This document shows positions 948 through 63,277 of a DNA stretch of 64,000 nt, piece after piece (position 1 is the first letter of the stretch; each line of letters starts with the position of its first letter). The notes beneath the pieces are model-generated. The model ran no database searches, had not been told where the DNA came from, and saw nothing but the letters and a program-made list of their open reading frames with translations. The DNA is from a virus. The DNA lies in IMG/VR virus record IMGVR_UViG_3300012347_000452, positions 43,051 to 107,050 of that record, one strand, 5' to 3'. The position numbers and the translations under genes were made by a program.

Positions 948-1069
948 GGAGTGCTTTCTGTTGCTGATGTCTTATTGTCAGCGGTGACTGATGGACAATC
1001 AACCGCTGAAGCAGGGTCATCGCTTGTGTCCGAACACAATCCCATACGCCATGCAAAAGAGCAGGACCG

Positions 1070-1324
1070 TCATGCAAGCTCCTGTTGGCCACCGGTGGGC
1101 TTCTCGGCCGCCAGGCGCACCCAGTGGTCGGCAGGCAGGTGAGCGAGCTCCTCTGGCAGATAGCTGCCCACATGCGCCTTCAAGCACTTCGGGCACACCT
1201 TGTCGCGGAACTCAGGCTTGTCGATCGGGGCGTAGATGTAGTGAACGCCCTCGTCGCCATCGGCTCGTTCGCCACAGATCGAGACTCCGGCAAAAACGCC
1301 GGTCATCGTGAGGTGGATTGACAT
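1070..1324 (-). CDS. Hypothetical protein with Cys motifs (possible Zn binding)
   Basis: MSIHLTMTG start after GGAG RBS; ICG...CPKC. Confidence 0.55.
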   Translation of the reverse strand: MSIHLTMTGVFAGVSICGERADGDEGVHYIYAPIDKPEFRDKVCPKCLKAHVGSYLPEELAHLPADHWVRLAAEKPTGGQQELA

Positions 1325-1554
1325 GCTTGCTCCTTTTCCCATTGGTGAACTTCGGGGGTGCGAATGCCGATGTAGTCGTAGACCCAATCGGTGTTCTGCG
1401 GGTCGCGATTCCATTTGGCGATCGCTTTCTTGGCTTCAGCCTCGATCATCCGAATGCCCATGAAGGCCATGTCGGGGATTTGGGCGTCGTTGAAGGTGCC
1501 GAGATAGACCGTGTTGGTCGGGAGGTGCCTCCTCCAGTAGTGAAGTTGGATCAC
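1303..1554 (-). CDS. Hypothetical protein
   Basis: GTG start overlapping the upstream stop; IQLHYWRR... Confidence 0.45.
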   Translation of the reverse strand: MIQLHYWRRHLPTNTVYLGTFNDAQIPDMAFMGIRMIEAEAKKAIAKWNRDPQNTDWVYDYIGIRTPEVHQWEKEQACQSTSR

Positions 1555-1853
1555 AGTTGCTCCCAGTCGGTGTGGTTCTGTTGGCGGTACTCCATCGAGG
1601 TGCATCCGAACTGCTCGGCCCAGTCGAGTGGTGCAAAGGCGTGATCGGCGTCGGCTTCCATGATGTCGCCGCACTTGCCTGTGAAATACACCTCGCCATC
1701 GTCATCGAGTAGGCGAAACTCGTAGGGCAGCTTTGCGGCCAGGGCCTGGAGCTCGGCGAGTGCGGGGAACTTGTGGCAGTTGTGGAACTTGCCCTCGTAC
1801 CGCCCTGTGTACTGCGTCTGGTGGTCGGGGTCGTGAGTGATGATCCAGTTCAT
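1551..1853 (-). CDS. Hypothetical phage protein
   Basis: MNWIITHD start; FRLLDDDGEVYFTG motif. Confidence 0.6.
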   Translation of the reverse strand: MNWIITHDPDHQTQYTGRYEGKFHNCHKFPALAELQALAAKLPYEFRLLDDDGEVYFTGKCGDIMEADADHAFAPLDWAEQFGCTSMEYRQQNHTDWEQL

Positions 1854-1941
1854 AAATCGCTCCGTGTCATGTTCAAAATCGAACAATTCAATTGTCACAA
1901 CCGAGTGTTGGACTTGCAACACTCAGTCGTGACATAGCCAA

Positions 1942-2667
1942 TCAATCGCCCGAATCGTCGTCCTCTTCGTCGTACTCGGCCATGTAGATGATGATGGCTT
2001 CGATGGCGCGCCCTTCTTCGTCGCGTCGGACGAGGCAGTCGTAGGAGCCGTCACCCCACCCCGTACTCGACACACAGCCAACAGGGTGCACACCCCACTG
2101 CCCTTGCGTGTCGCAAGTCAGGGCGCACACCTCGTCGTAGAAATTGTCCTTGACCGCCTCCGAGCCGCACATCTGATCGAACAGGGCGTAGTCGAAGAAG
2201 CCGGCCTGGCCCGAGTCCACACCCACATGGATGTCGGAGTCGACCCATGTGGAGTCAAACTCTGCCTCATGGTCGAAGTGGCTCTGGGTGTTCTCGTGGC
2301 GAATGTGCAGGTAGGCCACGCGACCGATGTGCGCCTCATAGTCGGCTCGGCGCTTGGCCAAGTCTTGCTCATCCATGTCCGCGATGATGCGACGAGTCTT
2401 GGCGGTTTCGGTGTCCAGCCCTTCGACAGCCGCTCGGGCTTTGGCGATGCGTTCTTCGCTCTCCTTGAGCGAGTCGAGCATCCACTGCTGTTCTTCAGGC
2501 GGTTTGCGGTAGCCGACGTGGGCCTGCCAGATGCCGTTCTTGACGTTGTCCAAGGTGCCCGCGCACCAAGTCTCCATGTCATAGCACGGGTCCGTGACCC
2601 GCAGAGCGCCCGATGACACCGCAAAGGCGTTGGGCGACGAGGTGCTGTCAATTTTGGAGAGTTTCAT
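1942..2667 (-). CDS. DUF4241-like protein
   Basis: SGALRVTDPCY, GVDSGQAGFFD and SSTGWGDGSY motifs. Confidence 0.65.
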   Translation of the reverse strand: MKLSKIDSTSSPNAFAVSSGALRVTDPCYDMETWCAGTLDNVKNGIWQAHVGYRKPPEEQQWMLDSLKESEERIAKARAAVEGLDTETAKTRRIIADMDEQDLAKRRADYEAHIGRVAYLHIRHENTQSHFDHEAEFDSTWVDSDIHVGVDSGQAGFFDYALFDQMCGSEAVKDNFYDEVCALTCDTQGQWGVHPVGCVSSTGWGDGSYDCLVRRDEEGRAIEAIIIYMAEYDEEDDDSGD

Positions 2668-60377: not shown

Positions 60378-60399
60378 CAAATTATACGTCAATGATGAC

Positions 60400-62589
60400 T
60401 TAGTAGGTGCCGCCGTCGATCGTGATGCCGTCGAAGGTCGTCAGGTTGGTGATCGAGCCACCAGTGATCGCCACCGATGCAGCGTTCTGGGTGGACATGG
60501 TGCCCAAGCCGCTGATGTCGGTGTTCGGGATGGTGGCCGAGGCCGTCATCGCGGTGGTGCCGGTGCCCTTCACGTAGCCGGTCAGGGTCGTGGCACCCGT
60601 ACCGCCGTTGCTGACGCTGAGTGCGGCGCCCGACCAGTTGCCGTTGTTGATCGAGGACAGAGTGGCAAGCGAGCCCAGACCCAAAGTCGCACGGGCGTTG
60701 GTTGCGTCAGGGTCATCCATCAACGTGCGAGCAAACGCCGTAAAGGTGGCCAGCGCAGCAGTGCCGGTGCCGGTGAAGTAAGGCAGGCGATCAGCCGCAC
60801 TCACCAGACCCGCCAGAGCAGTCAGCTCGGCGTCCAGGCCTTGTGCATCGGTGATGCCGTAGCCCGCCAGCGTGGTGGGGTTGGTGCCTGCACTCACACG
60901 GCCGTAGGCATCGACGGTGACGCTGCGGTAGGTGCCTGCGGTGCCGATCGTGGCCAGGTCGATGTTGTCGGCGTTGACGACGATGCGTGCGGACGAGGCG
61001 GTGCCGATGTCGATGCTGTTGCCGGTCTTGGTCAGGCCGTTGCCGGCGCTGATCTGACCCGCACCCGAGAAGGTCTGGAAGACGATCGCGGTCGTGTTGA
61101 GCGTGCCACCGGGTTCGGCCGTGCAGACGAAGCCCATGTCGGCGTTGGTCGTGCCGGATTCAGCGAACACGTAGGCGCCAGGCAGCTCGGTCCAGGAGTC
61201 GGCGTCGAGCGAACGGGTCCAGGCGCCAGCGGCGACCACATAGATACCGTTCTGGGACTGAGTGGTCTGATCCTTGACCAGAACACGATCACCGGCGACC
61301 AGCGCGATGCCATCGATCGTCATCGTGCCCGAGAGGGTCGCGATGTTGGTCGTGGTGGCGGCGCGAACCGAAGCCTTGGGGTCCAGACCTTGCACAGTCA
61401 GGTCCACGTAGTTCTTCGTGGCGGCGTCCTGGGCGTTGACGGGGTCCAGCAGGTTGGTGATCTTGCGGCTGTTGAGCGACACGTCGGCGGTCGGCACAGC
61501 CATCTGGTCCAGGCGGCTGGTTCGGACTTGCGTGTCGAAGTCGCTGATCTTGACGGCGGTGAGCGTCGGGATGTCGGCGGCACTCAGGGTGGTGCCGGCG
61601 GTTACGCGGCCCTTGGCGTCGGTCGTGACCTTGGTGTAGGTGCCGGCGGTGCCGACAGAAGCCAGAGTCAGAGCGATGGCCGTGGTGCCCGAACCGCTTG
61701 CGTCACCCGTGACGGAGATGTTCTGGTTGCCGGTCAGGTAGGTCGCGGTGTCCAGCGTCCAGGTGTCGGCGGCGGTCTTGCGCAGCAGGCCCGAAGTGCC
61801 AGCCAGCGCGGCGATCGCGGTCAGGTCAGCATCGAGCGGCTGAGCGTCGGTAATACCGTGGCCAGCCAGAGTCGTGGGGTTCGAGCCGGCAGTGACTCGA
61901 CCTTTGGCGTCCACCGTCACGACGCGGTAGCTGCCAGCGGTCACGCCCGAGGCGGCCAGAGTCAGTGCGGCCGTGGCATCGCCACCACCGTTGAAGCTCA
62001 CGGTCCAGGAGGCGTCACCCGTTGCGCTGATCGAGCGAGAGGTGGCCAGCGAGGTGGCGGTCGTCGCGTTACCAGCCAGGGCAGCCGTGATGGTGCCGGC
62101 GGCGAAGTTGCCCGAGGCGTCACGAGCGACGATCTTGGAGGCGGTGTTCAGGTTCGTGGCATCGACCGCGAAGGTCACTGCGCCCGAGCCGTTGAAGGTG
62201 CCGCCAGTCAGGAATGCACCTGCCGTCAGCGCGTTCGTGGTGTTCGCGGTCAGGGTGATGTTGCCCGTACCGTTGAAGGACACGCCGTTGATCGTGCGGG
62301 CGGTTTGCAGCGCGGTCGCCGTGCCTGCGTTGCCGGTGATCGAGCCCGCGATGGTTTGCAGGAAGCTCTTGAAGCCTGCGATGCTCTGATCGCCGGACAA
62401 GGCCATGAACGCGCCGACACCGCCGATCGGGACGGCCATTGTGGCGTTGCCACCTGCGCCTCCCGAGCCGAGGCCGTACCACAACACCTCATTCTGTTCG
62501 TTGAATGCCAGCTCGGCATTCTGCATAACGGCCGGTGCCCCGATGCCTCCACCCGATGCACGGCGCTTGATGCGAATTGTGTTTGCCAT
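60400..62589 (-). CDS. Tail fibre protein (gp53/gpH-like repeats)
   Basis: [10 protein letters not shown] and [13 protein letters not shown] repeats; DAATKNYVD; ends IDGGTY. Confidence 0.85.
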
Positions 62590-62600
62590 TTGCTGCTTCC

Positions 62601-62873
62601 TTAAAAGTTTCCGCCGTCCGTCAGGGTCGGTGCTGTGATGTTGATGACCTTATTGGCTCCGATGGCGAGGATGTCCCCCGGCACTGGATTGGTGAGTTGA
62701 ACGACCAGACCGCCGATCTCATTGGGGCCAGGCACACCCTGACTTCCCGTTTCACCCTTGTCCCCTTTGGCGCCAGGCGGCCCCATGATGCCCTCGGAGA
62801 TAACCTCCGCTGGCTGATCTTCTGTGACGACGACCGTTGTTTCTTCCGGCGTCTGAATGATTTCAAAGTCCAT
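62601..62873 (-). CDS. Small collagen-like adaptor protein
   Basis: [20 protein letters not shown]; ends DGGNF. Confidence 0.6.
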
Positions 62874-63237
62874 CTTTGGTCACACCCGGCGTTACCGTCA
62901 GCTTGCCCTCGATGAACCGGATTTCCTGCCCGCCTGGCGCGTAGAGCTTCAGGTCGTAGACGCCAGGAGCGATGGTCTCGGTGTCGTTGGCTGCGATGTC
63001 GATCTGAATCACGCCGATCGCGGGAAAGCTGATGCGTCCGTTGGCCGTGGAAAGCTCGAAGAGCACGGCAGCACTGGTGGCGGACGAGCGCACCTGCATC
63101 TTGGCGGTGTAGCCGGTCAGGTTCACCGGGCGCTTGTTCTTGTCACGCCAAACGAGGCGTTTCGAGTACGTCGCACCCTGTTCGACAGTGAGGTTCAGCT
63201 TTGCGGCGGGCATCGTGATTCCAAAAATTTGGGCCAT
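62863..63237 (-). CDS. Baseplate / fibre attachment protein (BppU-like Ig fold)
   Basis: L.VEQGAT...PVNLTGYTAKMQVR...VYDL...EG.L.V.PGVT. Confidence 0.7.
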   Translation of the reverse strand: MAQIFGITMPAAKLNLTVEQGATYSKRLVWRDKNKRPVNLTGYTAKMQVRSSATSAAVLFELSTANGRISFPAIGVIQIDIAANDTETIAPGVYDLKLYAPGGQEIRFIEGKLTVTPGVTKDGL

Positions 63238-63277
63238 TCTAAGGCTGAAAAGCCGAAAATGTCAAGTCATCACTGAC

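Follow-up and report, generated by a model that had tools for sequence, protein, structure and literature searches.

A palindromic dyad distributed across a 107-kb virus genome and its relatives as the probable operator of a phage-encoded XRE-type protein

Phage P1 is a plasmid prophage of ∼100 kb in which the C1 protein represses many separate transcription units directly; the C1 operators are 17 bp in length and asymmetric, C1 itself is not known to be an XRE/Cro-type protein, and P1 also has Coi, Lxc and Ant layers of control. In the Streptomyces phage phiC31, one repressor occupies many palindromic operators at early promoters, the known sites being confined to the early region, while the palindromic operators of RK2 KorA and KorB, the latter a ParB-family protein, fall into several positional classes relative to promoters and are spread over the mobile element. 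In the Cluster A mycobacteriophages, including L5 and Bxb1, one prophage repressor is associated with 20–30 operators and stoperators located genome-wide, mostly in short intergenic gaps, the mid-genome maintenance gene is either an integrase or parABS, and the repressor and its site motif diverge together (PMC6550527). Here we describe a palindromic dyad, GTCA-N4-TGAC, that recurs throughout a 64,000-nt stretch of viral DNA (the window), corresponding to bases 43051–107050 of the 107,050-bp IMG/VR virus record IMGVR_UViG_3300012347_000452 (genome G000). Positions are those of the window unless given as genome positions. In its extended form, T[A/C]AGTCA-N4-TGACT[T/G]A, the dyad is on balance probably the operator of a phage-encoded dimeric XRE repressor (42064–42507).

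The Cluster A stoperators appear to be an even closer analogue of this arrangement than P1 C1. As in Cluster A, phages of the G000 type carry scattered intergenic sites, an integrase or a plasmid-type maintenance gene, and a motif and candidate repressor which diverge in parallel. In contrast, L5-type sites are 13 bp, asymmetric, oriented with transcription and mostly block elongation, while the G000 sites are mostly promoter-associated and palindromic, so that the asymmetry and orientation bias characteristic of L5 and P1 sites are absent; there is also no sequence relationship to Cluster A, and the hosts and phage family differ. A preliminary description of this DNA had likened the site distribution to P1 C1-type repression, a comparison which seems fair as sites are observed in every module, including the tail genes. 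Both would involve a large element and direct repression of separate units instead of a cascade, but G000 has a palindromic site and an XRE-type protein, and the Coi, Lxc and Ant layers of P1 were not found in it. The G000 system would thus function like those of L5 and P1 C1 while belonging to neither family, because the site is palindromic, the putative repressor is an XRE dimer and the sites are mostly promoter-associated. Many palindromic operators for one repressor would also be shared with phiC31; however, the protein family differs and sites are also carried by the tail and head genes of G000. With 434, P22 c2 and lambda Cro/CI, the system shares a predicted N-terminal fold (root-mean-square deviation (rmsd) 1.6–1.9 Å over 63 residues), a dyad operator and a putative dimer, whereas those phages use two or three clustered operator regions and a cascade, and the XRE protein, lacking an S24 domain, has a small helical C-terminal dimerisation module in its model that is nearer to Stl, DdrO and SinR. 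As with RK2 KorA/KorB, palindromic operators in several promoter-relative positional classes would be distributed over a mobile element; unlike KorB, the ParB_N protein of G000 does not track the motif.

Enrichment of the dyad is real and was undercounted in the preliminary description. The window contains 22 perfect copies compared with a mean of 1.57 and a maximum of 5 in 100 dinucleotide-preserving shuffles of the window, none of which (0/100) reached 22. The 17 copies reported previously equal the number of intergenic copies; the total had omitted five copies located within genes (26976, 36225, 57155, 59120 and 61702). Of the 33 perfect copies in the whole genome, 23 are intergenic and 8 intragenic, the other 2 lying at gene edges. 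Intergenic DNA constitutes only 10.3% of G000, a fraction based on rough gene calls, yet holds ∼75% of the dyad copies. Intergenic enrichment had been set beforehand as a test of the proposed regulon and was borne out, with 23–25 of the 33 copies in this tenth of the genome and GTCA-N4-TGAC the most enriched among all 4-mer dyads with spacers of 0–12 (Poisson p ∼5e-34); the runner-up dyads, TCGA at 3n+2 spacings, reflect ordinary codon periodicity. One-mismatch copies are also enriched between genes, ∼19 being intergenic in the genome. A position weight matrix (PWM) derived from intergenic copies yielded an 18-bp dyad consensus, T-[A/C]-A-GTCA-N4-TGAC-T-[T/G]-A, the outer part of which often constitutes the TAA stop codon of the upstream gene. 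Taken together, the 33 perfect copies and the ∼19 one-mismatch intergenic ones are distributed over all modules from the tail genes to the early region. Site conservation was compared with the close relatives of G000, five IMG/VR contigs (G001–G005) exhibiting 73–81% DNA identity to it. The copies in the window are given below with no strand assigned; RBS, ribosome-binding site; RNR, ribonucleotide reductase; ORF, open reading frame.

977–988: perfect copy, intergenic
1922–1933: one-mismatch copy, 2 nt before TTGCAA-17-GACAAT (minus strand)
3345–3356: one-mismatch copy, paired with the 3371 copy around a -10-like TATATC
3371–3382: perfect copy, intergenic, upstream of gene 2892–3302
14223–14234: perfect copy, upstream of gene 13280–14197; half-sites retained in G004
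14466–14477: perfect copy, 3 nt beyond the TATACT of a promoter-like TTGTCG-18-TATACT
15837–15848: perfect copy, intergenic, within a longer inverted repeat
17119–17130: one-mismatch copy, intergenic, PWM 19.0
20005–20016: perfect copy, 6 nt after TATAGT (TTCAAA-18-TATAGT)
20428–20439: perfect copy, abuts TTGCGT-17-TAAGAT in the gap separating the RNR gene from the tRNA cluster
22951–22962: one-mismatch copy, intergenic
23593–23604: one-mismatch copy, intergenic
24904–24915: perfect copy, upstream of an ATG (24878) and 8 nt past TATACT
26976–26987: perfect copy, intragenic, not conserved in relatives, probably not functional
28008–28019: perfect copy with no visible promoter, following a stop codon and preceding the next RBS; lost from both G003 and G004
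32074–32085: perfect copy, in the spacer of GTGACC-18-TATAAT
33062–33073: perfect copy, after the DnaE stop codon; core kept in 3/4 relatives (one mismatch in G005), with a different spacer in each
36225–36236: perfect copy, inside DnaE; half-sites retained in 5/5 relatives, synonymous positions included
39418–39429: perfect copy, abuts TTGTCT-17-TATGAT, upstream of the CobS-like gene
41589–41600: perfect copy, 3 nt ahead of the CobT-like gene RBS; core retained in 5/5 relatives
41613–41624: one-mismatch copy, adjoins the 41589 copy
41918–41929: imperfect copy, located where XRE and the 62-aa ORF diverge; left half TAGTCA conserved in all relatives, right half degenerate
42652–42663: one-mismatch copy, before AlpA; conserved in four relatives, G002–G005
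48013–48024: one-mismatch copy, intergenic, directly after a stop codon
51509–51520: one-mismatch copy, 1 nt before TATACT
53146–53157: perfect copy, flanked by TTGCCT and TATAGT; G001, G003 and G004 keep the core but have different spacers
54966–54977: one-mismatch copy, overlaps the -35 of TTCACG-17-TAGAAT
55270–55281: perfect copy, 6 nt after TATAAT
57155–57166: perfect copy, intragenic
59120–59131: perfect copy, within the 934-aa tail gene; disrupted in G001
60388–60399: perfect copy, past the 729-aa tail gene stop codon and 1 nt ahead of TATAAT
61702–61713: perfect copy, intragenic; not conserved in G001
63266–63277: perfect copy, after a stop codon; abuts a -35-like hexamer (TTGACA), downstream of which is a -10-like hexamer (TAGAAT)

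The copies reported earlier before AlpA (42652) and in the XRE divergent region (41918) are present. The 20428 copy forms the tip of a 17-bp inverted repeat (20400–20460) between the RNR gene and the tRNA cluster, both arms of which are changed compensatorily in G003 and G004, from GAGGGAA/TTCCCTC to GCAGGGAA/TTCCCTGC. A similar extended palindrome flanks the 39418 copy.

The five close contigs carry 19, 4, 16, 18 and 4 copies in 72.6, 8.2, 46.6, 43.5 and 17.5 kb, respectively. Across 33 orthologous intergenic site pairs, conservation is 93% for GTCA, 99% for TGAC, 64% for the 4-nt spacer and 74–76% for the flanks. The half-sites are thus held at 93–99% while the spacer falls below the flanks, suggesting that the spacer drifts freely. 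This footprint is the pattern anticipated for a dimer reading two half-sites and indicates that the copies are under selection.

Position relative to promoters was read for each site in the direction of transcription. Five of the seven minus-strand sigma-70-like hits in window 1–60000 touch a dyad copy (14481–14510, 20023–20052, 32068–32097, 39389–39417 and 54949–54977). The coordinates and promoter contexts quoted in the preliminary description were all recovered from the sequence, as were the two positional classes it had recognised; a third class, situated between the two promoter hexamers, had been missed. In class 1 the site lies 3–8 nt after a -10 hexamer (14466, 20005, 24904 and 55270). 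In class 2 it is located between -35 and -10, the latter starting 0–2 nt after the core (32074, 60388 and 51509; genome 2930 and 24761), and in class 3 it abuts or overlaps the -35 (39418, 20428, 63266, 54966 and 1922). When 161 oriented intergenic sites were pooled from nine genomes, strong -10-like hexamers clustered at +12/+13 (34), -8 to -15 (∼28) and +34/+35 (11) relative to the core. In G000, a strong -10 is observed at one of three fixed offsets in 9/20 unambiguous oriented sites in the sense direction versus 0/20 in the antisense; the antisense control is high in the AT-rich relatives, rendering the pooled -10 figure weaker there. Site positions fit promoter occlusion.

The earlier suggestion that the positional classes reflect both repression and activation was not supported, since all three classes lie within the RNA polymerase footprint and repression suffices to explain them. 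A dual role, in which one protein represses and also activates by replacing the -35 contact, as MerR and MotA do, where a -10 directly follows the site and no -35 is visible, would account for the 34 hexamers starting 12–13 nt from the first base of the core and for the many promoters without a -35 match. We nevertheless regard it as distinctly unlikely, as a dimer centred near -19 intrudes into the polymerase footprint, spacing is the usual 17 nt where a -35 is present (genome 2930; TTGCAA-17-TACAAT in Rhizobium phage B1VFA), and the antisense control is nearly as high in AT-rich genomes.

Location also bears on whether the dyad acts as RNA, a short hairpin in 5' leaders or between cistrons which affects stability, processing or translation. 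The dyad can form a 5–7-bp stem, many copies precede a start codon by 10–40 nt (median distance from the site centre, 48 nt) and a few tip longer hairpins with compensatory changes (20428 and 39418). Against this, the stem sequence is fixed within a genome without covariation, and many copies reside in promoter spacers or upstream of a -35 and are thus untranscribed from that promoter. Rfam gave no match to the dyad, finding only three tRNAs, and an RNA family was rejected; an RNA role is hardly probable.

A conserved CTGGCTATA candidate promoter box was encountered only twice. In B1VFA (MT770738.1), a box, [T/C]GCGCTATAA[A/G], is positioned 1–4 nt upstream of the putative operator at about ten sites, for example 489, 13377 and 20055, with the start codon ∼20 nt after, and has the appearance of a phage-specific promoter class.

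By protein similarity and gene order, G000 groups with Pseudomonas phage nickie, Stenotrophomonas phage BUCTxx99, Rhizobium phage RHEph10 and SSU5-like phage-plasmids, its DnaE being 36–44% identical to theirs; a megablast search of isolated phages gave no relative close to G000 at the DNA level. Relatives were fetched using the CobT-like, XRE and ParB_N proteins as probes, and complete genomes were subjected to an unbiased dyad search. Ten related 96–122-kb phages and phage-plasmids carry a 5-N4-5 palindrome in about 14–37 copies each, 61–100% of which are intergenic, with examples as follows.

G013 (62% GC, classed as a provirus): GTCA-N4-TGAC, 37 copies, 34 being AGTCA-N4-TGACT
G015 (67% GC): GTCA-N4-TGAC, 33 copies
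G014 (41% GC): GTCA-N4-TGAC, 17 copies
G008 and G009 (42–43% GC): GTCA-N4-TGAC with preferred spacer [G/C]TAC, 22 and 26 copies, respectively
Rhizobium phage RHEph10: A[A/G]TCA-N4-TGA[C/T]T, ∼28 copies
G006: AGTAA-N4-TTACT, 13 copies
Rhizobium phage B1VFA: AAGTAA-N4-TTACTT, 30 copies; 32 in the family-wide tally
Klebsiella phage pJN2-26 (MZ779062.1): GTAA-N4-TTAC, 15 copies

The half-site is therefore AGTCA, AGTAA or ARTCA depending on lineage, and differs even between the two Rhizobium phages. No enriched 5- or 6-mer dyad was detected in nickie or BUCTxx99, in which GTCA-N4-TGAC matches 4 and 8 times, respectively, with 0 intergenic. A description of the motif was not found in the literature on nickie-like phages, RHEph10, B1VFA and SSU5-like elements; the type of control is known, and appears to be undescribed for this phage family.

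Occurrence of the same motif over 41–67% GC, combined with different half-sites in two Rhizobium phages, suggests a phage-encoded, co-evolving binder and argues against a host factor, which was rejected. That the sites serve a host protein or a process other than transcription, such as ParB-type partition and spreading, packaging, replication or nicking, is very unlikely on the same grounds and also because the copies track promoters. The phage ParB_N gene adjoins one copy and contains another, and relatives include plasmid prophages; ParB and KorB bind palindromes. However, homologues of the ParB_N protein (genome 30998–31651) with 40–52% identity are present in the motif-less nickie and BUCTxx99, and also in RHEph10 and SSU5, and this protein was rejected as the binder. 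Nick or packaging sites, which the name of nickie had brought to mind, were rejected as nickie is devoid of the motif and a literature search gave nothing.

The protein which best matches the motif is encoded in the window, along with the following neighbours.

42064–42507, plus strand: XRE-family helix-turn-helix (HTH) protein, 147 aa, proposed dyad-binding repressor (HTH_3 match, fold model, phyletic distribution)
41687–41875, minus strand: 62-aa ORF divergent from XRE (Cro position), without family match
42672–42887, plus strand: AlpA/Xis-like gene (Pfam Phage_AlpA, E 5.6e-14), preceded by a one-mismatch dyad copy
42781–44070, minus strand: tyrosine integrase, maintenance gene adjoining XRE (phrog_1 integrase, E 1.9e-52)

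The AlpA-like and integrase genes are convergent, with an ORF overlap of ∼100 bp, and their profile-matched parts nearly abut.

XRE homologues were detected in 9/9 complete motif-bearing relatives tested and in 0/2 motif-less ones, nickie and BUCTxx99 yielding none even at E ≤ 1. Among 145 predicted proteins, three are present in all nine motif-bearing relatives and neither motif-less genome, XRE and two tail/connector-module proteins of unknown function, leaving XRE as the only DNA-binding candidate having the distribution of the motif. Its location is constant, between ligase and the CobT-like gene and beside a maintenance gene that is an integrase in G000 and pJN2-26 and RepC in RHEph10 and B1VFA. 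The XRE start in pJN2-26 is preceded by two dyad copies, at distances of 35 and 72 bp. Alignment of 23 XRE homologues revealed a nearly invariant P46 and an invariant N47 where the recognition helix starts, while the preceding residue 45 is K, R or T in association with AGTCA, N in the three AGTAA lineages (G006, B1VFA and pJN2-26) and Q with ARTCA (RHEph10). A K/R-to-N change accompanying a C:G-to-A:T change would be chemically sensible. The site motif and XRE thus appear to co-diverge among the relatives, the AGTCA, AGTAA and ARTCA classes being accompanied by matching XRE changes.

Structural modelling is consistent with a dimeric DNA-binding protein. The AlphaFold model of XRE (pLDDT 84) consists of an N-terminal five-helix domain followed by three further helices. 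The N-terminal domain aligns structurally with 434 Cro, P22 c2 and the controller proteins of restriction-modification systems, with an rmsd of 1.6–2.2 Å and TM of 0.7–0.8 on the target, while the full-length model resembles the two-domain repressors Stl, DdrO and SinR; an S24 peptidase domain is absent. A homodimer modelled through residues 103–143 scored 0.53 versus 0.00 for the best control, a mark reached by 20/30 solved homo-pairs and 1/23 solved single chains, the runs agreeing in at least 82% of contacts with partner pLDDT of at least 74. The models therefore support pairing of XRE through its C-terminal domain, which would match the two-fold site. A PDB sequence search with XRE returned marginal hits only, and the family comprises 105 clusters in a large protein collection, many on ∼105–110-kb contigs and bearing generic names only. 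The preliminary description had named XRE as the most plausible dimeric regulator, and phyletic distribution, residue-45 covariation, the Cro/CI-like fold and the modelled homodimer all point to it as the best candidate.

The closest relative, G001 (IMGVR_UViG_3300043447_000415), has a deletion at contig bases 12450–13090 in which XRE, AlpA and integrase residues 181–429 are gone, with the 62-aa ORF retained. The integrase remnant is 92% identical, above the genome average, suggesting, but not proving, a recent deletion, and G001 may be a virulent derivative of a temperate phage. SSU5 (JQ965645.1) is likewise without the XRE module and, at 79% overall identity to pJN2-26, has degraded versions of 4 of the 12 intergenic sites of that phage. 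A second palindrome, AAACAA-N1-TTGTTT, unrelated to the GTAA/GTCA dyad, is enriched in SSU5 and pJN2-26 at 11 per genome versus ∼0.01 expected.

Several observations weigh against XRE as the repressor acting at the dyad. G001 retains its 19 copies in 72.6 kb with decay no greater than in XRE-bearing relatives, and SSU5 keeps 7 intergenic GTAA copies, indicating that sites long outlive the repressor or that a second factor uses them. The Pfam HTH_3 match of XRE is weak (E 0.0019, below the curated cut-off), and the region upstream of XRE in G000 holds only imperfect copies. The phyletic comparison includes only two motif-less genomes, with lineages that are possibly not independent, and the correlation between residue 45 and the half-site could reflect shared ancestry. 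Promoter-like sites were no commoner in an overall sigma-70 consensus scan than in shuffled sequence, and some copies, located between a stop codon and the next RBS, are without a recognisable promoter (28008; genome 11483).

Persistence of many sites in G001 and SSU5 is also what would be anticipated if the dyad were the operator of another phage protein, either a Cro-like product of the 62-aa ORF (41687–41875) or some other small orphan, with XRE a mere neighbour or second user. In lambda-like switches two proteins share the same operators, and the 62-aa ORF, situated at the Cro position divergent from XRE, is kept in G001. We consider this unlikely, although it is the main rival explanation. 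The ORF has no Pfam or PHROG match, including any DNA-binding family, and is recognisable only in close relatives, such that it was rejected as the binder and kept only as a rival; moreover, the only two further proteins sharing the distribution of the motif are of unknown function and belong to structural modules. A promoter element for the phage sigma factor (37468–38136) was also rejected, as the dyad is symmetric, the -10 offset is variable and a sigma homologue is present in the motif-less BUCTxx99.

With XRE as the repressor, a mechanism can be envisaged in which the XRE gene, residing in a maintenance module beside integrase and AlpA, would be read opposite to the lytic genes in the prophage, whether this is integrated or, as in relatives, a plasmid. 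One XRE dimer would occupy each of ∼30–45 sites in the prophage state. As most sites would overlap sigma-70-type promoters, covering the start site, occupying the -35/-10 spacer or lying against the -35, bound dimers would block RNA polymerase at each transcription unit separately, and the few sites between a stop codon and the next RBS may be roadblocks to read-through. We infer that XRE is the binder, that its binding represses and that half-site variants correspond to immunity groups. Observations bearing on a possible temperate lifestyle are that integrase and AlpA adjoin XRE, that the relative G013 is classed as a provirus, and that RepC is found in relatives.

Extended to the relatives, this reading describes a family of ∼100–120-kb temperate phages and phage-plasmids, spanning SSU5-related Klebsiella elements, Rhizobium phages RHEph10 and B1VFA and many uncultured relatives over 41–67% GC, which would silence every promoter through one co-evolving XRE dimer and 15–40 palindromic operators. 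Single-base half-site switches (AGTCA, AGTAA, ARTCA), matched by one residue ahead of the recognition helix, would define immunity groups, and loss of the XRE module would yield virulent derivatives, G001 and SSU5 among them and perhaps also the nickie-like phages. Taken as a whole, this combination is tentative, being a little likelier to fail in some part than to hold throughout. SSU5-like phage-plasmids are common in Enterobacteriaceae, some carrying resistance genes, and relatives infect rhizobia and plant pathogens; no description of how ∼100 kb of lytic genes are silenced in SSU5-like phage-plasmids was found in the literature. If true, the operator/repressor pair would provide a ready-made promoter map of these genomes, allow superinfection immunity groups to be predicted, offer a simple marker distinguishing temperate from virulent phages that would be useful in choosing biocontrol phages, and supply a natural specificity-variant series for studying changes in HTH targets. 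The finding is family-wide and directly testable.

G000 has a GC content of 60% and nearly all of its genes are on the minus strand, the XRE gene being read from the opposite strand. The window encodes a DnaE-type polymerase, SbcCD, RNR, ligase, DnaB, CobT/CobS-like proteins, three tRNAs, a tyrosine integrase and AlpA-like, XRE-type and sigma-factor-like proteins. Further genes were recognised within and outside the window.

37468–38136, minus strand: sigma-70 region 2 protein, 222 aa (Pfam E 3e-8; phrog_351 sigma factor), immediately following the CobS-like gene
48088–48591, minus strand: WGR-domain protein, 167 aa, in the replication module
51177–51467, minus strand: Hfq-like protein, 96 aa, phage-encoded (Pfam Hfq E 6e-8, above the curated cut-off)
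genome 30998–31651, minus strand: ParB_N-domain protein, 217 aa, outside the window, with one dyad copy adjoining the gene
genome 35110–35496, plus strand: YspA/SLOG-family protein, outside the window (Pfam YAcAr E 5e-19)

The sigma-70 region 2 protein implies a second layer of transcription control, and RHEph10 has a sigma-factor annotation at the matching position. RHEph10 gp034 is likewise annotated WGR. The dyad copy internal to the ParB_N gene, at genome position 31100, is conserved.

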